Part shown: positions 5,736-27,815 of the stretch, piece after piece | Layout of the letters: the number at the start of each line of letters is the position of its first letter | How positions within the stretch are numbered: position 1 is the first letter of the stretch | NCBI GenBank assembly: GCA_964594005.1 | Contig: CAZQKP010000001.1 | Location: 1-40,638, forward strand | Source of the DNA: an uncultured Candidatus Saccharibacteria bacterium | GTDB taxonomy: Bacteria; Patescibacteriota; Minisyncoccia; Phycocordibacterales; DATDWN01 | Direction: 5' to 3' | Length of the DNA stretch: 40,638 nucleotides | Program-made: the position numbers and the translations under genes | The notes under the pieces: generated by a model | What the model was told of the DNA's origin: nothing | What the model saw: the letters and a program-made list of their open reading frames with translations, nothing else | The model's database searches: none

Positions 5736-7310
5736 ATGGCAGTTTCCAAAATATATTCTGCCCAGGCCAATCTCCTCAATGCACAAATAATTGATATTGA
5801 AGTTGATCTTTCGCGAGGGCTTCATTCTTTTTCTATTGTAGGCTTAGCTGATAAATCAGTAGATGAATCCAAAGACAGAGTCTCTGCGGCCATAAAAAAT
5901 TCTGGTTGGAAATCACCAAAAAATAAAAACCAGAAAGTAGTGGTGTCTTTAGCGCCTGCAGATGTCAAAAAAGAAGGTCCGATTTTTGATTTGCCAATTG
6001 CACTAGCATATCTAATCGCGGCAGAAGAGATTAAAGCTGATTTTAAAAATCGTTTGTTCATTGGCGAACTTTCTTTGGACGGGGGACTGCGCGGAGTTAA
6101 GGGTGCCTTGCCAATTACTCAAAAAGCTAAGAAATCTGGGTTTAAAGAAATATTTTTACCCAAAGAAAATGCGGAGGAAGCCTCGAATATTTCAGGCATA
6201 AAAGTCTATGGCGCTGAGACACTTTTGGATGTGATTAAACACATCAACACCAAAGAGATCGTGGGAGAAGATGGCGAAAAAATTTTGGAGCATAAAGAAC
6301 TTAAGCCTTTTGTGAATAAAAAGAAAAAAATCCAAAATTTGGAGGTGGAATTAGATTTTGCGGATGTGAAAGGTCAGGAAGCAGCTAAAAGAGGGCTCGA
6401 GATTGCAGCGGCAGGGGGACATAATATTTTAATGTACGGTCCGCCAGGCACAGGTAAAACAATGCTCGCCCGTGCCTTTACATATCTTTTGCCCGCCCTT
6501 TCTTTTGAGGACAAACTAGAAGTTACATCGATTTATTCAATTGGCGGAATGTTAAATGAATCTTTGGTGGAACACCCACCATTTAGATCGCCTCATCATA
6601 CTGCCTCGTATGTTTCCCTTGTGGGGGGTGGAGCAAATTTAAAACCAGGTGAAGTTACTTTGGCTCACAAAGGTGTTTTATTTTTAGATGAATTTCCGGA
6701 ATTTGATAAAAAAGTATTAGAGAGTTTGAGGCAGCCATTGGAAGATAGAGAAGTAACAGTCTCTCGTGCCAAAGGTTCGGTTAAATATCCGGCGCATTTT
6801 ATTTTAGTTGCCACCATGAATCCTTGTCCTTGCGGCAATTATGGCGTTAAGGGTAAAGAATGTACTTGTTCCGCTCAAGCAATCGAAAGATACAAAAGAA
6901 AATTGTCGGGGCCAATTGTAGATCGCATTGATTTATGGGTGGAGGTCTCCAAAGTGGAGCACCAGAAATTAACTGATGCGAGAGAATTACACGAAGGTAC
7001 AGAAAAAATTAAACCAAGAGTGTTAAATGCTAGAAAAATTCAAGAAAGCAGATTTAAAAGTGGTAAATTGAAGGTAAAAACAAATGCAGAATTAACAGCA
7101 CGAGATTTGGTTAAACATATTGTGCTTAAAGACAGTGTAAAAGAACTTTTGAATAAATCCGCGAAGCAATTGGATCTCTCCGCACGCTCGTATCACCGCA
7201 TAATTAAAATTGCGCGAACAATTGCAGACCTGGGGGGAAGTCGCGAGATTGAGGAAAATCATATTTTGGAAGCACTGCAATACAGACCGAAAAAATATCA
7301 AGCTGTTTAA
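5736..7310 (+). CDS. comM: YifB/ComM-family Mg-chelatase-like AAA+ ATPase
   Basis: Lon-protease-like N-domain, Walker A MYGPPGTGKTM, Walker B VLFLDEFPEF, a CPCG...C.C zinc motif and a C-terminal SARSYHRIIKIARTIADL. Confidence 0.92.
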   Translation: MAVSKIYSAQANLLNAQIIDIEVDLSRGLHSFSIVGLADKSVDESKDRVSAAIKNSGWKSPKNKNQKVVVSLAPADVKKEGPIFDLPIALAYLIAAEEIKADFKNRLFIGELSLDGGLRGVKGALPITQKAKKSGFKEIFLPKENAEEASNISGIKVYGAETLLDVIKHINTKEIVGEDGEKILEHKELKPFVNKKKKIQNLEVELDFADVKGQEAAKRGLEIAAAGGHNILMYGPPGTGKTMLARAFTYLLPALSFEDKLEVTSIYSIGGMLNESLVEHPPFRSPHHTASYVSLVGGGANLKPGEVTLAHKGVLFLDEFPEFDKKVLESLRQPLEDREVTVSRAKGSVKYPAHFILVATMNPCPCGNYGVKGKECTCSAQAIERYKRKLSGPIVDRIDLWVEVSKVEHQKLTDARELHEGTEKIKPRVLNARKIQESRFKSGKLKVKTNAELTARDLVKHIVLKDSVKELLNKSAKQLDLSARSYHRIIKIARTIADLGGSREIEENHILEALQYRPKKYQAV

Positions 7311-8341
7311 AAAGGATTTTTGGCACCGCGGATTTCAAAGTGTAAATGCACCCCAGTAGCTTTGCCAGTTGCGCCCATGCGACCAATAACCTGGCCCTGA
7401 TTTACGTGATCACCCACAGAAACTAGGGCCGCGCTCAAGTGACCATAAAGAGTCTGGGTACCATTACCATGTTTTATAACTATGTAAGAACCATAGCCTC
7501 CATTCCAACCAGAATTTTTGGAAATAATTACATCACCCTCTGCGGCAGCATAAATATTTGCTCCGTAGGATGAAGCTAAATCTACTCCATTGTGTCCATG
7601 AATACCTTGAGTTTTGATTCCACCAATAATTGGTCTCATATAGTATCCATCATAAACAGGATAAGAAGACCCTTGAGTGCCCACGCCCGTCTGGTTGTAT
7701 TTTTTAGAACCAGAGTTAGAAGTTGGTGCCATTTCTCCATCTGGAATTATAATCACATCTCCAATTGAAAGTTTGGAATTTTTAGTTAAATTGTTGTAAG
7801 AGAGAATTTCATTTAGATCACCCTTATACATCTTGGCAATACTCAAAAGCGTATCGCCGGACTTAACTACGTGTTGCACTCCCGAAATTGGCAAAATAAC
7901 TAATTTTTGCCCTGGGGTGAGGTTATTACTGGTTAAATCATTACCCCAACGAATTGTATTAACAGAAACACCAAACATTTTGGCTATATCAGGTAAAGTA
8001 TCCCCCGGCCTTACCACATAAATACTAATTTGATCATTGGTCGATGTTTTATCCTCCGAAACTTGAATATCCGGCGAAAGAGAGGTGCCGCCAACAATAG
8101 CTGGATCTGAGTCAGTGGTAGTAGAATTCTGGCCAGGTGAAATCACGGCCTGCAGTAAAGCAATTGTTTGAGAATTTGATTCAATTTCCTCTGCTTCTAC
8201 CTTACTGCCGCCCCCAAAACAGGACAAAATGTCAAAAAATCCGCAGGCACTTACGGAAATTGGTGTAAAAAATAACGCCAAAATAAGCGGATTGACCACT
8301 AAAACCGAAACTATGTTCACCGTTGCAAGCCACGATCCCAC
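7307..8341 (-). CDS. Secreted peptidoglycan hydrolase: 2x LysM + M23 metallopeptidase
   Basis: LysM repeats YVVRPGDTLPDIAKMFGVSVNTI and HVVKSGDTLLSIAKMYKGDLNEI. M23 motifs HNGVDLA and GATGKATGVHLHFE. N-terminal TM anchor. Confidence 0.9.
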   Translation of the reverse strand: MGSWLATVNIVSVLVVNPLILALFFTPISVSACGFFDILSCFGGGSKVEAEEIESNSQTIALLQAVISPGQNSTTTDSDPAIVGGTSLSPDIQVSEDKTSTNDQISIYVVRPGDTLPDIAKMFGVSVNTIRWGNDLTSNNLTPGQKLVILPISGVQHVVKSGDTLLSIAKMYKGDLNEILSYNNLTKNSKLSIGDVIIIPDGEMAPTSNSGSKKYNQTGVGTQGSSYPVYDGYYMRPIIGGIKTQGIHGHNGVDLASSYGANIYAAAEGDVIISKNSGWNGGYGSYIVIKHGNGTQTLYGHLSAALVSVGDHVNQGQVIGRMGATGKATGVHLHFEIRGAKNPF

Positions 8342-15347: not shown

Positions 15348-17614
15348 TGAAAAAGGTTTTTTATCTTATTTTAATAGTTTTAGTGCTCATACCACTGTTT
15401 GTACCCCTCCACATAGCTTCTGCTGCCTGCTCACCCTGGGATTTTGGAGGTTGTATTGATTGGGCATTGACCAATATCGCCAATCTAATATTGGGTCTTC
15501 TCTCTTATTTAATGGGTTGGGCAGCTTTGTGGCTCAACTTTGTCTTGGACTGGACAATTGTGAGGATGAAAACAAATCTCGCTACATTAACTGGCATAAA
15601 TACGGCCTGGAAAGTTGTGAGGGATCTGATGAATGTTTTTTTTATTTTCCTACTTATTTACGAGGGTATAAAACTAATTATTAACTTGAACAGTCGAGAT
15701 GGAATCAAATCATTTATTACTGGAATTGTTTTAGCCTCAATTCTTATTAATTTCAGCCTTTTTTTCACCAAAGTAATCATAGATACTTCTAATATCGTGA
15801 CTATTGGATTTTATCAATCAATTCTAGATACAAATCGAGGAAAACAGGCGAGTTGTGATGCTCAAGGAAATTGTGGCACGGGTTATGGTTTGGCTGATCC
15901 TATTATGGGTGCGCTACATTTAACCAGCGCTTACGACGCAAAGGTTACTAATAGTTTGGGCGAAACATCAAGCTTTTTAATATCAGCGCTAGGTAACGCC
16001 CTCATAATTCTAGTTGCAGCTTTTGTTTTTTTTGCGGTTTCAATTGTATTCGCCGTTAGATACATGGTTTTGATTATTCTTATGATGCTATCCCCAGTAG
16101 CCTATATGGGTTTAGGACTACCTTTTATGAAAAAATATGCCAGTCAATGGTGGACTGCTTTCAATAGCCAAATTCTTTTTGCGCCTATTTTTATGATTTT
16201 AACTTGGATAAATATTACTCTAATGTACAGTCCGGGTTTTTTGACTACAGGTAGCTTCGCGGATGCCTTTGATAATAAAAACCCTGCTGGCGGAGGCGGC
16301 TTTAATCTTATTCTGAATTTTGCCATAATTATCGGCTTACTTATTGCCAGTTTAATTATTTCCAAAAAAACTGCGAGTCAGGGCAACAGCCTAATCGGTT
16401 CTGCAGTTGGTAATGCGACAAGTTTTGCGGGAGGCGCTTTGGTGGGGAGTACAGCAAGATTTGGCCGCGCAACTGTTGGTCGGGTCGGACAAGCACTTTC
16501 AGAGAGGGAGGGGCTTAAAGATGCCTCAACTAAAAGCGGAGTTCGGGGATTTATCGCCAGAAGAACGTTATCAGCAAGTAATAAGGCCGCCACATCTAGT
16601 TTTGATGCACGGGCTACAGATAGTTTTGGCAAATTGGCAAGTGCCACCGGTACTAATTTTGGCAAAGTGGACGCATCTAAACAGAACTTTAGAAAAATAA
16701 GAGAGGAGCAACAAAAGAAAGCGGAAGAAGAGGCTAAGAAGTACAAACCTTCTGACACCGCATATGCCGAAGCCAAAGAGAAAGATGAATTGGCTAAGGA
16801 GGAACTTAAAGAAAGAAAAGAAGAAGCCCAGAAAGCGGCGGATAGTGCTCAAAAAGCCTATGAGGCGGAATTAAATGAGGGCAGAACCTTAGACCAAATT
16901 GAAAAAGACCTCAAGGCAGCATTAGAAAAAGAGGAGAGTCATAAAAAATTTGGTATACCAAGTGACCCAGCTCTTGCTGCAGAGATAAATCGACTAAGAG
17001 CGGAATCCGAGACAAAGAAAACAACCCTCGCTTCCTTAGACAGGAACAAGAAAGAAACAAAATCAGCCGCCGAAAAACTTGAAAAAGACGAAAAGGAATT
17101 TAAGGAACAAGAAGAGAGAAAACTAAATGAAAAATACGCGGAAAGAGTTAATGCAGAAGCGGGAAGAAAGGGCCATGAAAACAGAGTGGCTTTGGAAGCG
17201 CAAAGAAAACTTGATGCTGACGACAGAAAATCTCCAGCAGAAAGAATGACAGTTGTTGAGAGAAAGAAATTGGAAGATCAAGTTAAAACTGGGGAGCACG
17301 ATACTAGGACAAACAAGGCTTGGCGATATGTGGCAAATACGGTGGGCCTTGTTACCAATGTGGCTGGGGTAACTAACATGCCAATGACCAAAAAAGATAG
17401 AGAGGCTTTGGCAAGAAAAGTAAGGGGAGTTGCCAAACAAAAGAACTCAAAAGATAAATTAGCTGAAGCGGTGAAGGATTATCAAAAAGATATCGACAAA
17501 GAATCAGGTGAAGCAGCGGCTGAAACAGCTGCCCCTGCTGCAGCGCCTGCACCGACCCCGGCCCCAGCCCCAGAACCTCCACCGTCACCACCACCAGCAG
17601 GAGGAGCTTCATAA
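15347..17614 (+). CDS. TrbL/VirB6-like polytopic membrane protein with a long K/E-rich coiled-coil and Pro-rich tail
   Basis: Signal/TM then about 8 hydrophobic helices (15347 to about 16380), typical of TrbL/VirB6 in size and topology. C-terminus (about 16685-17500) is EEQQKKAEEEAKK...-type charged helix, ending PAAAPAPTPAPAPEPPPSPPPAGGAS. Start taken at the ATG in TGATG (15345-15349); the track's ATG at 15323 is in frame. Confidence 0.55.
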   Translation: MKKVFYLILIVLVLIPLFVPLHIASAACSPWDFGGCIDWALTNIANLILGLLSYLMGWAALWLNFVLDWTIVRMKTNLATLTGINTAWKVVRDLMNVFFIFLLIYEGIKLIINLNSRDGIKSFITGIVLASILINFSLFFTKVIIDTSNIVTIGFYQSILDTNRGKQASCDAQGNCGTGYGLADPIMGALHLTSAYDAKVTNSLGETSSFLISALGNALIILVAAFVFFAVSIVFAVRYMVLIILMMLSPVAYMGLGLPFMKKYASQWWTAFNSQILFAPIFMILTWINITLMYSPGFLTTGSFADAFDNKNPAGGGGFNLILNFAIIIGLLIASLIISKKTASQGNSLIGSAVGNATSFAGGALVGSTARFGRATVGRVGQALSEREGLKDASTKSGVRGFIARRTLSASNKAATSSFDARATDSFGKLASATGTNFGKVDASKQNFRKIREEQQKKAEEEAKKYKPSDTAYAEAKEKDELAKEELKERKEEAQKAADSAQKAYEAELNEGRTLDQIEKDLKAALEKEESHKKFGIPSDPALAAEINRLRAESETKKTTLASLDRNKKETKSAAEKLEKDEKEFKEQEERKLNEKYAERVNAEAGRKGHENRVALEAQRKLDADDRKSPAERMTVVERKKLEDQVKTGEHDTRTNKAWRYVANTVGLVTNVAGVTNMPMTKKDREALARKVRGVAKQKNSKDKLAEAVKDYQKDIDKESGEAAAETAAPAAAPAPTPAPAPEPPPSPPPAGGAS

Positions 17615-17615
17615 T

Positions 17616-18281
17616 ATGAATGACGAAAATAAAATAGAAATACCAGATTACGTAAAAAAGCTACCACCGGAAGCCCAGGATTTTATATTTAGTTCTATCT
17701 GGGAAGATCGAACTAAGGAAGTTGCCCGAAAGTATTCGCTTAACGAAAGCCAGACTGAAAGCTTAATAAACACAGTTGCATTAGTTCTTATCGGAGTTGA
17801 AAATCCGGATGATCTCTACACAGATCTGTTGGAGGATTTAAAAACTTCTAAACTTTTAACTGAACAAATTATTTCTGAATTAGAGAAGAGAGTCTTCGAA
17901 TTTGGCGTAAAAATTATTTTGGACAACAAAAAACCAGAAAGCGATATCAAAGAAAAACCTGACACAACAATACCAGAGCTGAAGCCAAATCTACTACCTG
18001 AAACAGAAAAAGTAGCCAGCTCTTTTAAACCAATAAGTATTCCCAAGGAAGAAGTTGCTTCGGGCATAACTTATCCAGCCAAAAATGAAGAGACAGTACA
18101 ACAACCCCTAAAAGTCCCAGAAGTTAATATTGCCTCAGAAAAAGTTGAGACAAAACCAATAACCCCACCAACTATAGTGGAGACTAAACTTAAGGCAGTT
18201 ACCCCAAGTATTTCAGAAACACCTAGCTCAGATGCCCCCAAAAAATACACAGTTGATCCCTATCGCGAGCCAATAAACTAA
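17616..18281 (+). CDS. Hypothetical protein (T4SS-like cluster)
   Basis: ATG at 17616 lies about 11 nt after AGGAGG and 1 nt after the previous stop. The track's start at 17508 only adds the alternative reading of the upstream Pro-rich tail. No TM; Pro/Lys/Glu-rich C-terminus. Confidence 0.6.
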   Translation: MNDENKIEIPDYVKKLPPEAQDFIFSSIWEDRTKEVARKYSLNESQTESLINTVALVLIGVENPDDLYTDLLEDLKTSKLLTEQIISELEKRVFEFGVKIILDNKKPESDIKEKPDTTIPELKPNLLPETEKVASSFKPISIPKEEVASGITYPAKNEETVQQPLKVPEVNIASEKVETKPITPPTIVETKLKAVTPSISETPSSDAPKKYTVDPYREPIN

Positions 18282-18282
18282 A

Positions 18283-18717
18283 ATGAGATACCAAGTCCCT
18301 CAATTTATTGAAATAGAAGATAAGGTTATCGGACCATTTACCGTTAAACAGTTCGTTTACTTAGTAGGAGGTGGGGGTATGGCTTTTATTTTTTACAATT
18401 ACCTCAACTTATTTATAGCGATCCCGTTAATGGTTGGAGCTGTCGGATTGGGTCTCTCTTTAGCTTTTTATAAAATAAATAATAAACCGTTTATTGATTT
18501 TCTAGAGTCTGCTTTTATGTATTACACTAGAGGCAATCTCTATATCTGGCGAAAGGAGGTGAAAAAAATTGAACCCGCAAAAGAAAAGGCTGCCCAAGCT
18601 AATACTGTAACCGTTCCAAGGCTTTCTCAAAGCAAACTAAAGGAATTGTCTTGGTCTTTGGACATAAATGAAAATCTAAATCCAGTTACGAGTGAAAGCG
18701 GCAAGAGAACAAGCTAG
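18283..18717 (+). CDS. PrgI-family (VirB3-like) T4SS membrane protein
   Basis: MRYQVPQFIEIEDKVIGPFTVKQFVYLVGGGGMAFIFY followed by a second TM helix, which is the PrgI-family pattern; it lies just upstream of VirB4. Confidence 0.65.
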   Translation: MRYQVPQFIEIEDKVIGPFTVKQFVYLVGGGGMAFIFYNYLNLFIAIPLMVGAVGLGLSLAFYKINNKPFIDFLESAFMYYTRGNLYIWRKEVKKIEPAKEKAAQANTVTVPRLSQSKLKELSWSLDINENLNPVTSESGKRTS

Positions 18718-18738: not shown

Positions 18739-19389
18739 ATGGCAATCAGTTCCAAGGCAACTCAAGAGTTCGTTCCCATAAAAGAAGTCAAGGATGGCAT
18801 CATGATTTTGAAAAATGACTCCATGCGCGGGGTAGTTTTGGCTTCTTCTATCAACTTTTCTTTAAAATCGGACGACGAAAGAAACGCGATCATTTTACAA
18901 TTCCAAGATTTTTTAAACTCGCTCGATTTTCCGGTAGAAATTTCAATCGAATCTAGGCGCCTAGACATTAGACCCTATATTGCTCTCTTGGAAGGACGCT
19001 ATAAAGAACAGACCAATGACTTAATGAAAATACAGACCAGGGAATATATCGATTTTATTAAAAAATTTACGGAAAGTACCAGCATTATGACTAAAAGCTT
19101 TTTTATCATAGTGTCATACGATCCGGCACTAGTTAAACTTCAAGGACCTAATGCGGGCTTGAGTAAATTAAATATTTTTAAAAAAAAATCTGCCAATAAA
19201 CAACAAGAAGAAAAACAGGCAAATTTTGAGGAGAATCGTACACAGCTAGAGCAAAGAGTCTCGGTAGTTGAGCAAGGTCTTTCCCGTTGTGGTATTCGAG
19301 TTATTCGTTTGGGTACGGAAGAAGTGATTGAGTTGTTTTATAAAATATTTAATCCAGGGGACACAGAAAAACCAATTAAATTAAACTAA
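18739..19389 (+). CDS. Hypothetical protein resembling a free-standing VirB4/TraC N-terminal domain
   Basis: TQEFVPIKEVKDGIMILKNDSMRGVVLASSINFSLKSDDERNAIILQFQDFLNSLDFPVEISI follows the pattern of the N-terminal region of Gram-positive VirB4 homologues. TAATG overlap with virB4. Confidence 0.55.
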   Translation: MAISSKATQEFVPIKEVKDGIMILKNDSMRGVVLASSINFSLKSDDERNAIILQFQDFLNSLDFPVEISIESRRLDIRPYIALLEGRYKEQTNDLMKIQTREYIDFIKKFTESTSIMTKSFFIIVSYDPALVKLQGPNAGLSKLNIFKKKSANKQQEEKQANFEENRTQLEQRVSVVEQGLSRCGIRVIRLGTEEVIELFYKIFNPGDTEKPIKLN

Positions 19390-21203
19390 TGGCCTTACTC
19401 GATTTTTTAAAACCAAAAAAAGAAGAACCGATCTCAACTATTTTGCCGCAGGAGATTTATGACTCTAGCAGCCTAGAGTTAAAAGATGTTATTGCCCCCA
19501 GTGCACTTAAGGTTACTCCCAAAGAAATAAATTTAGGCGAAAAAATTGTGCGAGGATTTTTTGTTATTTCTTACCCAAGATACCTCTCGGAAAACTGGTT
19601 TGCGCCGATAATTAATCTGGACAAAATTTTTGATGTTTCTATTTTTGTTACTCCCATAGACTCCGCGGGCGCTTTAAAAACTTTCCAGAAAAAGGTAGCG
19701 GAGGTCCAAAGCCAGATTAATACCCGCGAAGCTAAGGGGCTTGTTCGAAATCCAATGCTGGATACTGCCTATCAAGACTTGGAGAGTCTACGTGATCAAC
19801 TGCAACAAGCCCAAGAGAAGCTTTTTGATGTCGGTCTATATATAAGTATCTACGCCGATAGTATGGAGGAACTGGATAAAATAGAGTCAGAAATAAAATC
19901 AATCTTGGAGGCAAAATTGGTTTACCTTAAGCCCGCTCTCTTTCAGCAAGAGCAATCTTTCCGCACATCAATTCCCTTGGGCACAGACGAACTTAAAGTT
20001 TATAGTAAATTAAACTCCTCACCCCTGTCACTTCTTTTTCCTTTTATTTCCTTCGACCTGACCTCGGATAAAGGAATTCTCTACGGCATCAATCGCCACA
20101 ATTCTTCTCTAGTTTTATTTGATCGCTTTTCCTTGGAGAATTACAACTCCATTACTTTTGCCAAGTCCGGTGCGGGCAAATCATTTTGCACCAAGCTAGA
20201 GATACTTCGTACACTTATGTTTGATACAGACGTTATTGTAATTGACCCAGAAAGAGAGTACGAATATCTAGCTGAAGCAGTGGGCGGCAGGTACTTCAAC
20301 ATTTCCCTTAATTCTGAACACCATATAAATCCTTTTGAACTGCCACACCCATCGGAAGACGAATCATTTTCTTCAGTCTTACGTACTAATATCATTAACT
20401 TAGTTGGTCTCTTTAGAATAATGATGGGCGGCTTAACACCTGAGGAAGACGCTATTATTGATCGCGCCATTTCAGAAACATACGCCCTAAAAGATATAAC
20501 TCCGGATTCTAATTTTGAGAATTTAGAGCCGCCTCTTATGTCCGATTTTGAATTAGTTCTCTCGGGTATGGAGGGGGGAGACTCTCTAGCACAAAGACTC
20601 TCCAAATACACTCGCGGCACTTGGGCTGGTTTTATTAATAAGCCATCCAATGTAGATATAAATAAAAAATTTATTGTTTTCTCTTTGCGCGATATGGAGG
20701 ATGAACTGAAGCCGATTGCTATGTATATTGTAATGCACTTTATCTGGAGTGCCATTAGAAAGAACTTAAAGAAAAGATTACTTGTGGTTGACGAGGCATG
20801 GTGGATGATGAAATCAGATGACACCGCTTCTTTCCTGTTATCTCTTGCCAAAAGAGGCCGAAAATATTATTTAGGGCTTGCAACAATTACTCAGGACGTA
20901 GATGATTTCATGAAGTCAAATTACGGCACGCCAATTATTACGAACTCTTCAATTCAAATTCTATTAAAGCAGTCACCAACGGTGATAGATAAACTACAAA
21001 CTGTCTTCAACTTAACCGATGAAGAAAAATACCTTCTCCTCGAGTCTGACGTGGGGGAGGGAATATTTTTTGCGGGCTTAAAACATGTGGCTATAAAAAT
21101 AATCCCATCCTACACCGAAGAACAAATCATTACCTCTGATCCATCCCAAGTTCTAGCTATTAAAGCGGCAAAAAGACAACTGGAAGAATCCCAAAATGGA
21201 TAA
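19389..21203 (+). CDS. virB4: VirB4/TraC-type T4SS ATPase
   Basis: Walker A FAKSGAGKSF, Walker B LLVVDEAWWMM, an ATITQDVDDF-type sensor region and 604 aa. The N-terminal domain has the VRGFFVISYPRYLSENWF pattern. Confidence 0.85.
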   Translation: MALLDFLKPKKEEPISTILPQEIYDSSSLELKDVIAPSALKVTPKEINLGEKIVRGFFVISYPRYLSENWFAPIINLDKIFDVSIFVTPIDSAGALKTFQKKVAEVQSQINTREAKGLVRNPMLDTAYQDLESLRDQLQQAQEKLFDVGLYISIYADSMEELDKIESEIKSILEAKLVYLKPALFQQEQSFRTSIPLGTDELKVYSKLNSSPLSLLFPFISFDLTSDKGILYGINRHNSSLVLFDRFSLENYNSITFAKSGAGKSFCTKLEILRTLMFDTDVIVIDPEREYEYLAEAVGGRYFNISLNSEHHINPFELPHPSEDESFSSVLRTNIINLVGLFRIMMGGLTPEEDAIIDRAISETYALKDITPDSNFENLEPPLMSDFELVLSGMEGGDSLAQRLSKYTRGTWAGFINKPSNVDINKKFIVFSLRDMEDELKPIAMYIVMHFIWSAIRKNLKKRLLVVDEAWWMMKSDDTASFLLSLAKRGRKYYLGLATITQDVDDFMKSNYGTPIITNSSIQILLKQSPTVIDKLQTVFNLTDEEKYLLLESDVGEGIFFAGLKHVAIKIIPSYTEEQIITSDPSQVLAIKAAKRQLEESQNG

Positions 21204-22026
21204 TGGAGAAGAAAATGGATCCAAAATAAGCTTAATGGAGTGGGGGCTAGTAATTGGTGCCTTATTCGTTTGTGATCTTTTACAAGCTGGCCTCGATTTA
21301 TTGGTTATTGGTGAATTTACAAATCCTTTTTTTGATTTAATTATTGGAATGAGTTTCGGTTTGTATCTCCAGATGAGAGGAGAAAGTCTAACTAAACCTT
21401 CGAGAGCTTTTGGATTACTTGGAACTTTTCTTTTGGAAATGGTTCCTCTAATTGATGACTTGCCATTATGGAGTCTAGATGGACTTTTTAATATGCTTGT
21501 CTCTAGGCCAGATATTCTAAATAAGGTTAGCATGGGCATACCTGGATCTGGAGTGGTAAATAAATTAATTATTCCAGCCAAGACAGAACCAAACAAACCC
21601 GCTCAAGAAAAAGCGGAAAGGCTACGCGAATTGCCTGCGAAGAATACAAATCCAGGCTTTAATAGTAAGGAAAACGCAGTTGCCGCGAGAGAAAGATTAA
21701 ACAACGTTACAGATAAATATAACTTGGATACAGATAAAAACAAAGAGCCGATAAATGTAAACGAACAAAACTTAAAAGTGGCTAAGGATAAAAATCAAAC
21801 TGTAGATGAACAAAATTGGGAAGCAGCTAGAAGAAAGAACCGACAAAAAACAGTAGAGGAAGAAAATTTGGAGGCGGCTAGAAACAAAAACTCGGGAGAG
21901 GTCTATAATTTGAAGGGGGACGAGGCAATAAGACTAAGAAATGAGAGGCTGGAAGTAGCTAGAAGATTGGGCCTGCACTCAAGCGGAACGTCTCAAGAGA
22001 CTTCGGATCTAGAAAAAGCAGCCTAG
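21196..22026 (+). CDS. Hypothetical membrane protein with a repetitive charged tail
   Basis: 3-4 hydrophobic helices in the first ~100 aa. The tail has three ~14-aa repeats: NEQNLKVAKDKNQT / DEQNWEAARRKNRQKT / EEENLEAARNKNSG (about 21760-21895). 8-nt overlap with virB4. Confidence 0.6.
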   Translation: MDNGEENGSKISLMEWGLVIGALFVCDLLQAGLDLLVIGEFTNPFFDLIIGMSFGLYLQMRGESLTKPSRAFGLLGTFLLEMVPLIDDLPLWSLDGLFNMLVSRPDILNKVSMGIPGSGVVNKLIIPAKTEPNKPAQEKAERLRELPAKNTNPGFNSKENAVAARERLNNVTDKYNLDTDKNKEPINVNEQNLKVAKDKNQTVDEQNWEAARRKNRQKTVEEENLEAARNKNSGEVYNLKGDEAIRLRNERLEVARRLGLHSSGTSQETSDLEKAA

Positions 22027-22075
22027 TGTGCATAATCCACGTTTAGATACAATTTGACGTGTTACAATTATAGAG

Positions 22076-23062
22076 ATGAAGTATGTTTTTTCGACCATAC
22101 TGGCCTTATCTTTATTGCCAGCAATAGGTTTTGCGCAAATACCGGGAGTTGATAATTCAGATTTAAATGTAGAGCTAATTCCCGAAAGTCCCCACCCCAA
22201 CGAAGTGGTTAACGTTAGATTAACCGACTACAGTATTGATCTGGATTCTTCCCGAATAATCTGGAAAATAAATGGGGTTGTAAAACAATCTGGCACGGGG
22301 AATAAAACCTTCAGTTTCACTGTGGGTGATTTAAACAGTCATACTATTCTGACTATCGATGTCTCTGCCGCTTCCGGCCAAAATCTAGAGAAAATTGTTG
22401 AGGTAAGGCCTTCGAGTGTAGATATTTTATGGCAATCAGAAAGTTTTACTCCGCCATTTTATCGCGGCAAGGCATTGTTTAGTTATGAAAACAAAATTAC
22501 TTTTATCGCAATTCCCCATATAAGTAGTGGTAGTGGCGAGATTCCAACCAAGAATTTAATCTATAAATGGGAGATGAATAGCAATGTGATAGATGATTCC
22601 TCGGGCTACGGCAAAAATACTTTCACCACTATTGGTTCCCTCATCGCACGGCCACTTGAGGTAACTGTAGAAGTTTCGTCTTTAGATGGGATTTTCTCAG
22701 GCAGAGGACATATTATTACCACACCTGTTGATCCTAAACTCTTGCTCTATCAGGACGATCCGATTTATGGTTTACAATTTCAAAAGGCTCTAAACAATAA
22801 TTTAAATTTGGGGGGAGAAGAAATAGAAGTTATGGGTATACCATTTTATTTTGGGATAAAAGATCTTAGTTCTCCATATATTTCTTTTAAATGGTCGATA
22901 AACGGAGTCCCAACTGATAATGATGTGAGTGCCAATACTCAAGTGTTTAGAAAAAAAGAGGGAACTAGCGGCACCTCCAACATCTCTCTTAGAGTTGAGG
23001 ACTCTCAAAAGATCCTGCAAGCTGCTACCAGTAATTTTAATTTAAATTTTAACAATGAGTAG
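22076..23062 (+). CDS. Hypothetical secreted protein
   Basis: Signal peptide MKYVFSTILALSLLPAIGFA/Q. Beta-rich composition with internally similar segments (IIWKINGVVKQSGTG... / ISFKWSINGVPTDND...). Confidence 0.65.
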   Translation: MKYVFSTILALSLLPAIGFAQIPGVDNSDLNVELIPESPHPNEVVNVRLTDYSIDLDSSRIIWKINGVVKQSGTGNKTFSFTVGDLNSHTILTIDVSAASGQNLEKIVEVRPSSVDILWQSESFTPPFYRGKALFSYENKITFIAIPHISSGSGEIPTKNLIYKWEMNSNVIDDSSGYGKNTFTTIGSLIARPLEVTVEVSSLDGIFSGRGHIITTPVDPKLLLYQDDPIYGLQFQKALNNNLNLGGEEIEVMGIPFYFGIKDLSSPYISFKWSINGVPTDNDVSANTQVFRKKEGTSGTSNISLRVEDSQKILQAATSNFNLNFNNE

Positions 23063-23921
23063 AAGAATTTTAAAATTAGCCTTGGTTCTTTTAACCTTAT
23101 TTGGTCTTCAATTTTCTTTGGCCTTAGCTCAAAGCCAACAAATTCAATACCAGGTTTTAGCGCCTCTAGACAACGAACCAGCCACAATAACACTTCCTCA
23201 ATACATACCCTTCATAATTAACTTGTCTATTGGTATAGCCGCAGTCATGGCCTTCGTCATGATTACTTTTGGGGGAATTACATACGCTACAACTGACGCC
23301 TTACAAAAAAAACAAGATGGTAGAAAATTTATTGAAAATGCGATTATTGGTTTACTTCTGGTTATAAGCGCCTGGGTTATTCTTAATACAATTAATCCTC
23401 AAACACTTGATTTTAGTTTTTTAAGTAAATTACCCACCGCGCAAGTCACAGCGCCCACAAATGTGATTCCTGGCACTCCCATGACCCCCGAGCAACTTGC
23501 TGATGATGCTAATGTAAGATCCATACTGACCTCCCAATCTGGTGGCCAAGTAGTGGTGGCTCTAGCTCCCTGTGCGAGTGGCCAAACTAAGGGTTGCACA
23601 AATGTAAATGGTTTGCCGGTAAATGCTATCGACGGTCTCACTCGCTTGTCTAAAGACTGCAATTGTCAGATTATCGTGACCGGTGGAACAGAAGGAGGTC
23701 ATGTATCTCACGGTCCCGGCAAACCCGTTGTGGATTTGAGATCTCAAAATAGTGCTTTAACTGCCTTGTTGAGTAAATTTGATTCAAGAGCAGCTAACCC
23801 GTTTTCTAAACTGGCATTTGGAGTCACCCTTAAGGATCGCACCCATGCTAATTTCTCATATGAGACTGCTGAAGACCCTAACTCAAGCGGAGCGCATTGG
23901 CATGTAAGCTTTGGCCCATAA
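23055..23921 (+). CDS. T4SS pilin-like (VirB2/TrbC-type) module fused to a putative LAS/M15-like zinc peptidase domain
   Basis: Signal peptide, then IPFIINLSIGIAAVMAFVMITFGGITYATTDALQKKQDGRKFIENAIIGLLLVISAWVILNTINP, a two-helix pilin pattern. The C-terminus has GGHVSHGPGKPVVDL (S-x-H-x-x-G-x-x-x-D-like) and SGAHWHVSF (WH motif). Confidence 0.6.
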   Translation: MSRRILKLALVLLTLFGLQFSLALAQSQQIQYQVLAPLDNEPATITLPQYIPFIINLSIGIAAVMAFVMITFGGITYATTDALQKKQDGRKFIENAIIGLLLVISAWVILNTINPQTLDFSFLSKLPTAQVTAPTNVIPGTPMTPEQLADDANVRSILTSQSGGQVVVALAPCASGQTKGCTNVNGLPVNAIDGLTRLSKDCNCQIIVTGGTEGGHVSHGPGKPVVDLRSQNSALTALLSKFDSRAANPFSKLAFGVTLKDRTHANFSYETAEDPNSSGAHWHVSFGP

Positions 23922-23922
23922 T

Positions 23923-25146
23923 ATGTCTCGTAAATCTGTCTTTATTTTAATATCTGCAATTCTAGGTTTATTTTTAATATGCTTGATTGCTTATTATTTT
24001 ATTCTTTTAGGGAATGGTGGAAGCACAAGCAACACTCCAAGTGTTTTTAAAAATTTTTTTCCATTTGGAGGAAACGATAATGTTACAGCCAATCCGCCAG
24101 GAACTACTACTAACCAAAATCCTCCCATAAACCCTCCGGCTGAAAATTTTACTCAAAAGCTTAGAGAATTATCCGCCGAACCAGTCTCAGGCGCTGGGAG
24201 TTTGGATCTAAAAGCTGGCACAATTGTGCGTTACATTGAAAAAGCAACTGGTCATATTTATGAGGTGGAAATGTTTTCTCCAAACAAGACCAGGATATCC
24301 AACACAACCCTACCGCTGGTTTATGATGCACAATGGGGCAATAAAAATAATTCCTTAATTGCCAGGTATTTAAAAGACGACAATGAAACAGTAGACACCT
24401 ATGGTTTAACCCTTAAAAACTCGACCAGTACAGATAGTACGGTCTCGGGCACCCCTTTTCCAAAGAATATTTCAGATGTTTCCGTGTTTGATACAAGTGT
24501 GTTTTATCTGGTAGTAACACCGGACAACTCTTCTGGGTTTGTTTCCACCTTTGCGGGAGGACAAAAGAAACAGATTTGGAACTCCCCAATTACTGAACTC
24601 AACTCTCAATTTGTGAACTCTAAAACAGTAGCCCTTAACACCAAACCTTACCCTGGCATTCCGGGTTATCTCTATTTAGTCGATACAGGCACAGGTGGGG
24701 TTAAAAAAGTTTTGGGTGATGTTAATGGTCTTTCTACTTTAGTTAGCCCGGACGTAGCCCAAATAATTTATTTAAGCCAAGATAACATTGCCAAAATGTC
24801 TATTTGGAGTTCCAAAAGTAAAGCCTCAACCGATATAAGCCCCGCTACATTCCCAGAAAAATGTGTCTGGAGTAAAAAAAATACACAATTTGTTTATTGC
24901 GCCGTGCCTAAAAGGATTATTGGCCCAAATACATTAATCAATTGGTATCAGGGTTTGGAAGAAGAAAGTGATGATATTTGGAAATATGATTTAAAAACCA
25001 ATACCTCCGCCATTATAGAAAATCTCTCCACAGACGCTCGAGTAGACATTGATGTGATAAAACCATTTCTCTCTCAAAATGAACAATACCTAGTGTTTAT
25101 GAATAAAATTGATAATAGCTTGTGGAGTTTGGATTTGACCAAATAG
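23923..25146 (+). CDS. Hypothetical membrane-anchored protein, probably beta-propeller-like
   Basis: TM anchor VFILISAILGLFLICLIAYYFILL, a Pro/Asn/Thr linker, then about 330 aa of beta-rich sequence. ATG at 23923 lies 1 nt after the previous stop. Confidence 0.65.
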   Translation: MSRKSVFILISAILGLFLICLIAYYFILLGNGGSTSNTPSVFKNFFPFGGNDNVTANPPGTTTNQNPPINPPAENFTQKLRELSAEPVSGAGSLDLKAGTIVRYIEKATGHIYEVEMFSPNKTRISNTTLPLVYDAQWGNKNNSLIARYLKDDNETVDTYGLTLKNSTSTDSTVSGTPFPKNISDVSVFDTSVFYLVVTPDNSSGFVSTFAGGQKKQIWNSPITELNSQFVNSKTVALNTKPYPGIPGYLYLVDTGTGGVKKVLGDVNGLSTLVSPDVAQIIYLSQDNIAKMSIWSSKSKASTDISPATFPEKCVWSKKNTQFVYCAVPKRIIGPNTLINWYQGLEEESDDIWKYDLKTNTSAIIENLSTDARVDIDVIKPFLSQNEQYLVFMNKIDNSLWSLDLTK

Positions 25147-26480: not shown

Positions 26481-27047
26481 ATGGATAATAAAAAACTCTG
26501 GGACAGCGTTTTGGTCGAAATGGAACTTTCTCTCTCAAAGCCTAATTTCAACACCTGGTTTAAGGATACAGCAATTGTAAGACTTGATGGTAGCACTGTT
26601 TATCTGGGTGTACCTAATACGTTTGTTCAGGACTGGCTGTCCAGTAAATTCCACAACTCTATTCTAAAAGTATTAAGATCGCTCGCCGGCAATGTCCAGT
26701 CACTACAGTATGTAATCCATAAAGAAGATGGAGGGCATCATGTTGAGCCCAAAATATTACCTATTACCAGAGAGCTGCCGATTGCCGATACATATATTAA
26801 CAAAGAAGACGGACTCAACCCCCGCTACACCTTTGAAACATTTATTGTGGGACCGTTCAATGAATTTGCCTATGCTGCAAGCCAAGCAGTTATAAACAAA
26901 CCAGGTATTGTTTATAATCCACTCTTTATTTATGGTGGCACTGGACATGGCAAGACCCACCTAATCCAAGCTGTGGGAAATTTTCTAAAAAACGCGAGCG
27001 GCCGAAAGGTTTTTTACACCACTTCTGAAAAATTTGCCCATAAGTAA
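26481..27047 (+). CDS. dnaA: DnaA, N-terminal segment (domains I-II and Walker A), ending at an in-frame TAA
   Basis: LWDSVLVEMELSLSKPNFNTWF..., NPRYTFETFIVG, NPLFIYGGTGHGKTHL (Walker A). Stops at 27045-27047 inside the conserved SEKF..(F/Y).NAI.. segment. Confidence 0.85.
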   Translation: MDNKKLWDSVLVEMELSLSKPNFNTWFKDTAIVRLDGSTVYLGVPNTFVQDWLSSKFHNSILKVLRSLAGNVQSLQYVIHKEDGGHHVEPKILPITRELPIADTYINKEDGLNPRYTFETFIVGPFNEFAYAASQAVINKPGIVYNPLFIYGGTGHGKTHLIQAVGNFLKNASGRKVFYTTSEKFAHK

Positions 27048-27116
27048 AAAAATGCAATCCAACTTAATAAACCCAATCTTTTTAAAGGAAAATAACGCAA
27101 ATACGATGTTTTAATT

Positions 27117-27815
27117 ATGGATGATATCCAATTTTTCTCTGGCAAGGCCAAGGTGCAGGAGGAATTATTCCATCTTTTTAACCACCTCTATGACAACAAT
27201 AAGCAAATTATCTTTTCCTCGGACAAACACCCGGGATTAATTCAAGACCTAGAGGAAAGACTGAAATCTCGTTTTAGTGCTGGCATGGTAATTGACATTC
27301 CGGCGCCAGACAACGAGTCCCGTGCCGCAATAATAAGATCTAAATCAACCAATTCTGCCTTTCCACCATCGAAAGAAACTATTGATTACCTAGCTTATTC
27401 AGTGGTCGGCAACATTAGAGAGCTAGAAGGCATAATAAATTTCATTAATGCCCAAGCTCAACTAAGAAACAGGGAAGTTTCTATAACTGAAATAAAAAAT
27501 TATGTTAAAAATAATGCGCGACCCAAAAAACTTGTCTCACCCAAGGAGGTGGTCAAAACCGTGGCAGATTTTTATAACATTGAGGAACAACTGATTTATG
27601 ACAAAACCAGAAAAAAAGAAATTATTAAGCCGCGTCAAATAATTATGTACATTCTGCGAGAAGACTTTAACATTTCTTACCCCGCGATTGGTGAGAAGTT
27701 GGGAGGTAGAGACCACACTACCGTTATGCACTCCTGCGAAAAAATAAAAAATGATATGAAAGCGGACGAAGCTTTAATTCAAGAGATCAATCAGTTACGC
27801 TCTGTCTTTGTGTAA
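27117..27815 (+). CDS. dnaA: DnaA, C-terminal segment (Walker B, sensors, domain IV), in the same frame as 26481-27047
   Basis: (VLI)MDDIQFFSGKAKVQEELFHLFN (Walker B), IIFSSDKHP, RLKSRFSAGMVIDIPAPD, and domain IV IIMYILREDFNISYPAIGEKLGGRDHTTVMHSCEKI. 27117-26481 = 636, which is divisible by 3. Confidence 0.85.
   Translation: MDDIQFFSGKAKVQEELFHLFNHLYDNNKQIIFSSDKHPGLIQDLEERLKSRFSAGMVIDIPAPDNESRAAIIRSKSTNSAFPPSKETIDYLAYSVVGNIRELEGIINFINAQAQLRNREVSITEIKNYVKNNARPKKLVSPKEVVKTVADFYNIEEQLIYDKTRKKEIIKPRQIIMYILREDFNISYPAIGEKLGGRDHTTVMHSCEKIKNDMKADEALIQEINQLRSVFV

Follow-up and report, generated by a model that had tools for sequence, protein, structure and literature searches.

A type IV secretion pilin fused to a LAS-like domain in a Patescibacteria genome

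How does a type IV secretion system (T4SS) cross the cell wall in Patescibacteria, and is the wall of a host attacked as well? Most of the Patescibacteria that have VirB2 are without VirB1, and most of their T4SS clusters are without a relaxase (Quinonero-Coronel et al. 2025, PMC12102498); in Southlakia epibionticum, the only Patescibacterium for which this was tested by genetics, epibiotic growth requires the T4SS (Wang et al. 2023, PMC10633639). A gene in a 40,638-nt stretch of DNA from an uncultured Candidatus Saccharibacteria bacterium (contig CAZQKP010000001.1 of assembly GCA_964594005.1, positions 1 to 40,638; hereafter the window) suggests a testable answer to both questions, a pilin with its own probable peptidase. 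The open reading frame (ORF) begins with ATG (23055..23921, + strand, as are all features of the gene and its cluster given below) and encodes a 288-residue protein in which a T4SS pilin is fused to a domain resembling the LAS (lysostaphin / D-Ala-D-Ala peptidase / Sonic hedgehog) zinc peptidases. On balance, we lean towards reading the protein as a minor pilin with a specialised role, by which a LAS-like zinc peptidoglycan peptidase is anchored or displayed at the T4SS.

PF18895 identifies the N-terminal half as a true T4SS pilin. The protein opens with a probable Sec signal peptide (residues 1-25, MSRRILKLALVLLTLFGLQFSLALA, followed by Q; 23055..23129), modelled by AlphaFold2 as a helix over residues 3-23, with a likely cleavage site after residue 25 (…SLALA before QSQQ). 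The VirB2-like pilin core lies at residues 57-113 (23223..23393), where PF18895 matches with E = 1e-8 and 35.5 bits against a Pfam gathering score of 26.6 bits; a whole-genome scan returned the same coordinates, and the NF045849 pilin-like model scored 22 bits, below its cut-off. The core comprises two hydrophobic helices with a short K/R-rich loop between them and a conserved TINP at the end, and the AlphaFold2 model places helices at residues 47-79 and 83-113 as a helical hairpin. An earlier note, made from the letters of the window, had proposed this succession of a signal peptide and a two-helix VirB2/TrbC-like pilin, and the above-threshold family match and the modelled hairpin bear it out. 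The gene is encoded in one cluster with VirB4 and VirB3/PrgI, a further mark of a T4SS pilin. A Pro/Thr-rich linker (residues ~119-143, 23409..23483), which varies in length in the alignments and has a predicted local distance difference test score (pLDDT) of 64-67 (residue blocks 121-140), connects the two halves.

The C-terminal half (residues ~144-288, 23484..23918) is a globular α/β domain, LAS-like (of the Hedgehog/DD-peptidase kind) in its conserved residues and predicted to be extracytoplasmic; modelled alone, it reached a pLDDT of 96.4 and a predicted template-modelling score of 0.90. Across 125 sampled homologues, ~27-53% identical, residues E213, H219, D227 and H283 are invariant, and H216, E270, H281, C173, C181, C202 and G210-T212 are conserved in at least 90%, as is C204 in the domain-only alignment. 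The four cysteines C173, C181, C202 and C204 (23571..23666) probably pair into two disulfides. The conserved loop GGTEGGHVSHGPGKPVVD (residues 210-227, 23682..23735) carries E213, H216 and the putative zinc ligands H219 and D227, and aligns with the S-x-H…D of CwlK and with Sonic hedgehog (Shh). Residue E270, the proposed general base, closes the penultimate strand (…FSYE; 23862..23864), and the last strand holds an H-x-H element, H281-W-H283 (23895..23903), in which H283 is a putative third zinc ligand and H281 a putative catalytic residue, going by their conservation, a sub-optimal collinear Shh alignment and PF13539 matches of homologues that extend to position 67-69 of the 70 in that model. 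Such conservation at the C-terminal motifs is, judged from the alignment, not a matter of chance.

It was from two strings in this half that the earlier note had read a LAS/M15-type zinc peptidase. Both are present, GGHVSHGPGKPVVDL at residues 214-228 and SGAHWHVSF at residues 278-286, with the protein ending in SGAHWHVSFGP. The window protein departs from the literal S-x-H-x-x-G-x-A-x-D motif that was cited with them, having S-H without a spacer, no Ala, and H-x7-D instead of H-x6-D.

How widespread is the fusion? An exhaustive phmmer search returned 750 representative homologue clusters at E ≤ 1e-3, of which 192 pass E ≤ 1e-10. Among the top 150 listed homologues, nearly all measure 270-320 amino acids with the domain at the C-terminus, and a PF18895 pilin is present in 111 of the 125 sampled family members. 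Because the clusters are so many and the pilin accompanies the domain in most sampled members, we regard the fusion as an old and widespread architecture rather than a local accident. In one of the 125, an SLT lytic transglycosylase domain is added, and it may be that pilins of the group commonly bear C-terminal 'cargo'. The domain has no Pfam model. The Patescibacteria T4SS survey (PMC12102498), the Cell 2023 paper (PMC10633639), the 2025 T4SS review and the only other paper citing PF18895 are silent on any fusion of a pilin with a peptidase-like domain. The earlier note did not know this architecture from characterised systems. With hundreds of sequence clusters, the architecture is anything but rare. 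Both the combination of pilin and peptidase-like domain and the GGTE…HWH/HWD subfamily, which is without Pfam annotation, appear undescribed; the two parts are each of a known kind.

The domain also occurs on its own. A profile search found stand-alone secreted versions of 130-180 amino acids in Streptomyces, Amycolatopsis, Nakamurella, Deinococcus, the basidiomycete Flagelloscypha and the springtail Allacma fusca (for example P0188, P0191, P0199, P0245, P0250 and P0251), a distribution which suggests that a secreted enzyme spread horizontally. The stand-alone and pilin-fused groups align over 128 columns with an hhalign probability of 99.9% (E = 1.9e-31); the stand-alone branch has H-x6-D spacing and ends in N-H-W-D rather than H-x-H. 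In P0188, PG_binding_1 is followed by a domain of the stand-alone type, and the DD-peptidase of S. albus has the same kind of layout. Through this large domain family, the pilins of Patescibacteria are connected with small proteins secreted by Actinobacteria, a fungus and a springtail.

In sister genomes, the same long-pilin slot holds alternative C-terminal domains, which we term types B and C (L008 789-1691 on the - strand, L015 and L016; L017-L021), type A being the form found in the window. Type B, from the syntenic pilin of sister genomes of the same genus, reads …ITSDTGGSHDPNSLHYQGRAVD…FLWE…GDHWHVS, and its SLHYQGRA(V/F)D is an exact S-x-H-x-x-G-x-A-x-D motif, nearly identical to that of Hedgehog. 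The type-A family profile matches type-B domains with 48-58 bits (E = 1e-17 to 1e-20) from helix α2 to the C-terminus, against a maximum of 11 bits in 3,780 shuffles; since the match lies so far above the shuffles, types A and B are homologous. For all three type-B proteins, the best non-pilin Pfam matches are Peptidase_M15_4 (positions 3-69 of 70) and HH_signal, with E = 0.002-0.07, and the Peptidase_M15_4 match is collinear down to the terminal His. A search of 301 genomes of the order for more type-B variants yielded only two, too few for a sharper profile. Type C reads VTEGYPPTTTHQDTCHANGTCVD…SHFHIQ, with the pattern VTE(G/A/T)(Y/W/F)PPT…(H/Q)x(D/N)GT(C/S)(V/I)D…HF(H/S). It is probably related to the C-domain family, judging by an hhalign comparison with the profile of a bridge subset, about a dozen type-A members that combine GGTE with H-x2-G-x-A-x-D (76.5%, P = 2.2e-5). 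Some type-C members are without putative ligands: in L019/L020 the first His is replaced by Q, and in L018-L021 HFS stands in place of H-x-H. Catalysis seems dispensable at least in those lineages.

For kinship with the LAS zinc peptidases (Hedgehog/DD-peptidase; M15, M23 and M74; Bochtler 2004), we looked for H-x(3-6)-D, a distal H-x-H or E/D-x-x-H, a match to a curated model and a fold with clustered ligands. In Shh, the zinc ligands are H141, D148 and H183 and the catalytic Glu is E177, and the DD-peptidase signature is H-X(6)-D plus H-X-H (Roelink 2018, PMC6027127). The window protein has the distal H-x-H as H281-W-H283, with E270 upstream like E177 of Shh. The order of elements is parallel, VTEG…GHH…SLH-x6-D…VYYE-SKA-HIH-CSV in Shh and VTGGTEGGH…SH-x7-D…FSYE-(insert)-HWH-VSF in the window, and the last strands (sgdHwHvef and SKAHIHCSV) align sub-optimally and collinearly. 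On this mapping, H219 would correspond to H141, D227 to D148, H283 to H183, E270 to E177 and H281 to H181, with H216 probably matching one histidine of the Shh 'GHH'.

One bridge-type member matches positions 3-67 of the 70 in PF13539 with E = 4.8e-4. Run against the whole PDB, the bridge profile retrieved Hedgehog N-domains only (23 distinct sequences, E = 0.015-0.18), and against the Shh catalytic core, taken from 2wfx_A, it scored 18.5 bits (P ~9e-8) where 5,000 shuffles gave a maximum of 9.1. Its hhalign comparison with CwlK gave P = 0.0013 and kept the H219/D227 register. In a Foldseek search of the viral library BFVD, the named whole-domain matches near the top were M15 peptidases only (E = 0.04-0.15, probability 0.47-0.66, template-modelling score ~0.4).

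Several results weigh against this kinship or against an enzymatic role. No Pfam match reaches a curated LAS cut-off, the best members scoring 21.1 bits for PF13539 (cut-off 25) and 16.5 bits for PF01085 (cut-off 22.1); the window C-domain itself, searched as protein and as three family profiles, has no Pfam, NCBIfam or PDB-sequence match, the bridge profile excepted. By Foldseek, the domain model has no PDB match at E ≤ 1e-3 and no LAS enzyme in the top 50, and none of its BFVD matches to LAS proteins is significant; the full-length model retrieved only helical-hairpin plus α/β look-alikes such as histidine kinases, none of them significant. The whole type-A family against the CwlK-type M15_4 alignment gave a non-significant hhalign P of 0.078, with H219 and D227 falling on the CwlK ligands, and the stand-alone family against the CwlK/M15_4 alignment was likewise non-significant. 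A type-A-only profile matched the Shh core marginally (5.5 bits, ~99.9th percentile of shuffles), and the profile of the stand-alone family found no matches in the PDB. H219-x7-D227 is one residue longer than the LAS-defining H-x(3-6)-D, with both residues invariant and H-x6-D present in family homologues. The type-C swaps of H to Q and H to S mean that the slot may not require catalysis, and a 17-kDa domain on each subunit would crowd a pilus.

Taken together, distant homology of the domain to the LAS peptidases appears to us likely. The conserved H…D…E…H-x-H, the canonical-motif variants, the sub-threshold collinear M15_4 and HH_signal matches and the Hedgehog matches in the PDB speak indirectly for the LAS/M15 reading of the earlier note, but the whole-family comparison did not reach significance and the Foldseek comparison suggested there left a LAS fold unconfirmed despite a model of such high confidence. 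Since neither a curated-model score nor a fold match was obtained, we call the domain 'LAS-like' rather than a member of the superfamily. The kinship would extend the Hedgehog/DD-peptidase story (PMC6027127) to another bacterial lineage.

What would such a pilin do beside the other pilins of the genome? PF18895 has seven matches in the genome, six of them outside the window. On contig C4, six short, divergent pilin-like ORFs of 95-140 amino acids follow one another in tandem (~15396-17651; L025 897-3152), with at least four PF18895 matches among them, and these pilins terminate 10-25 residues past the second helix; the run is of the 'VirB2 array' type described previously (PMC12102498). The VirB4 cluster contains one pilin only, the long fusion, which is thus the odd one out in a genome whose other pilins include a tandem array of short ones. 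Relatives, too, have a short-pilin array plus one long pilin, and because of this recurring division we take the fusion to be a minor, specialised subunit and not the main pilin. PF18895 also occurs in much longer ORFs of relatives, of 425-873 amino acids (for example G043:C4:23423, G038:C32:29333, G047:C4:45895 and G037:C1:102433).

Both ends of the mature VirB2 hairpin face outward. Given this topology, with which the four conserved cysteines fit, we place the C-domain outside the cytoplasm. After removal of the signal peptide, the two-helix hairpin would sit in the membrane or pilus with both its ends outside, and the ~25-residue Pro/Thr-rich linker would present the disulfide-stabilised domain of ~145 residues on the outer face. 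The domain, as a very divergent relative of the LAS zinc peptidases, may hold Zn2+ through H219, D227 and H283 and activate a water molecule through E270, assisted by H216 and H281, thereby cleaving a peptide bond of the stem or the cross-link of peptidoglycan. The pilin tether would confine cutting to the point at which the T4SS or pilus crosses the wall. That wall could be the cell's own, the domain substituting for VirB1, which has no counterpart in the cluster, or the host bacterium's, at the place of contact; hypothetically, cleavage within the linker could also set the enzyme free. We speculate further, and consider it doubtful, that the T4SS pilus of Patescibacteria is enzymatically armed, with the pilin at the tip or along the fibre bringing a zinc peptidase to the host wall and cutting locally to open the way for the essential, relaxase-less T4SS to form a conduit into the host. 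If true, this would be a wall-piercing pilus without counterpart among characterised T4SSs, and a bacterial Hedgehog-like domain acting in cell-to-cell contact.

The alternative that survives best, which we rate as improbable, is that the C-domain, carried on the pilin as a pseudo-peptidase or Hedgehog-like ligand, binds without catalysing and serves the T4SS pilus as its adhesin for peptidoglycan stem peptides or another surface ligand. The probably related type-C variants lacking putative ligands in the same slot would fit it, as would the non-canonical H-x7-D of the window protein and the missing fold-level match to active LAS enzymes; catalytic loss has a precedent in Drosophila Hh, which is without equivalents of D148 and E177 and carries H-x-Y for H-x-H (PMC6027127). 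Against it, all seven putative ligand and catalytic residues are invariant or nearly so in 125 type-A sequences that share only ~30-50% identity elsewhere, a pattern typical of active sites, and the stand-alone relatives are small and secreted, one with a peptidoglycan-binding domain, as lytic enzymes would be.

Somewhat less probable again is a new fold unrelated to LAS, possibly metal-binding, in which H/D/H-x-H arose by convergence and which has another activity or substrate, such as another hydrolase or a structural cap. In its favour, the very confident model has no significant structural neighbour; the LAS sequence links are all sub-threshold and come mostly from one ~30-residue loop, and nothing in LAS proteins corresponds to the additional N-terminal helix and Cys-loop. 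Against it, three independent LAS branches (CwlK/M15_4, Hedgehog and phage M15) align on the same His and Asp, the PF13539 matches are collinear over the whole model as far as its terminal His, and the succession TE…H…H-x6/7-D…YE…H-x-H…S parallels the TEG…HH…H-x6-D…YYE…H-x-H-C-S of Shh; a peptidoglycan-binding domain is fused to one homologue.

Faulty assembly or a frameshift could also have joined a short pilin gene to the gene of a separate secreted enzyme, and a fragmented assembly and a damaged patch in nearby dnaA might point that way. This is so improbable that we reject it, since hundreds of independent clusters and assemblies (NCBI, JGI, ENA and Logan) show the same one-ORF architecture of 270-320 amino acids.

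The minor pilin with a LAS-like peptidase, which remains our preferred reading, is encoded within a conserved cluster. The cluster opens with a PrgI/VirB3-like gene (18283-18717; PF12666) and a gene for a 216-residue TraC-like protein (18739-19389; PF26593 on the equivalent gene of relatives), followed by the VirB4 ATPase (19389-21203; NF045971 at 377 bits against a 325-bit cut-off, and PF19044). Two conserved genes without an assigned family, encoding 276 and 328 amino acids and syntenic in relatives, lie directly upstream of the fusion gene (21196..23062), and a conserved gene of 411 amino acids, again syntenic and without an assigned family, lies downstream as the last of the cluster (23911..25146). 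The fusion gene shares 8 nt with its upstream neighbour and 11 nt with its downstream neighbour, overlaps that indicate a tightly packed operon. Beyond the 411-residue gene come convergent yidC-rnpA and then dnaA-dnaN. The order PrgI - TraC-like - VirB4 - x - x - pilin fusion - x is kept in independent NCBI, JGI and Logan assemblies, and in the window and its relatives the fusion occupies the same slot of the syntenic cluster beside yidC/rnpA/dnaA. The cluster is of the chromosomal, origin-proximal, relaxase-less T4SS type described for Patescibacteria (PMC12102498). Scans for Pfam-type domains found no recognisable wall-hydrolase domain in its other genes.

Around the cluster, a LysM-LysM-Peptidase_M23 protein, another LAS-type wall peptidase, is encoded on the opposite strand ~5 kb upstream of the cluster start (7307-8341, -). 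In some relatives, a 114-residue 23S_rRNA_IVP (PF05635) gene stands between the TraC-like gene and virB4 (L003 3521-3865 and L004 1953-2297). At 26481-27815, dnaA is split into two ORFs of 188 and 232 amino acids, where relatives have a single intact dnaA of 445-448 amino acids in the same place. The genome of the window measures 0.58 Mb at 77% completeness in 78 contigs, typical of the group.

How, then, does the fusion compare with known systems? With the VirB2/TrbC-type PF18895 pilins of Patescibacteria (PMC12102498; PMC10633639), it shares the signal peptide, the hydrophobic hairpin and a VirB4/PrgI cluster near oriC. Those described measure ~100-160 amino acids and often stand in tandem arrays, whereas the window protein is a single copy in the core cluster with an added globular C-terminal domain. 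RP4 TrbC and Ti VirB2 are pilins processed at the C-terminus, with non-enzymatic propeptides of a few to ~30 residues; they set a precedent for removal of sequence after the second helix, one that is purely hypothetical for the linker of the window protein.

Like the VirB1-type hydrolases, which contain SLT with or without CHAP (VirB1, TraG of pIP501, PrgK and TcpG), the fusion is encoded in a T4SS operon and would open peptidoglycan locally. We rejected homology to VirB1, the protein having no SLT, CHAP or lysozyme domain in Pfam or NCBIfam. Its predicted activity is that of a peptidase, not of a glycosidase, and it is covalently joined to the pilin rather than separate, making it at most a functional analogue. 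With the LAS peptidases (the Hedgehog N-domain and M15 DD- and LD-peptidases, among them CwlK, VanX/VanY and the S. albus DD-carboxypeptidase), the likeness lies in the ordered H-x6/7-D, the Glu that ends the preceding strand and the H-x-H of the last strand, while the GGTE-GGH signature, the extra N-terminal helix and the four-Cys loop are peculiar to the window family.

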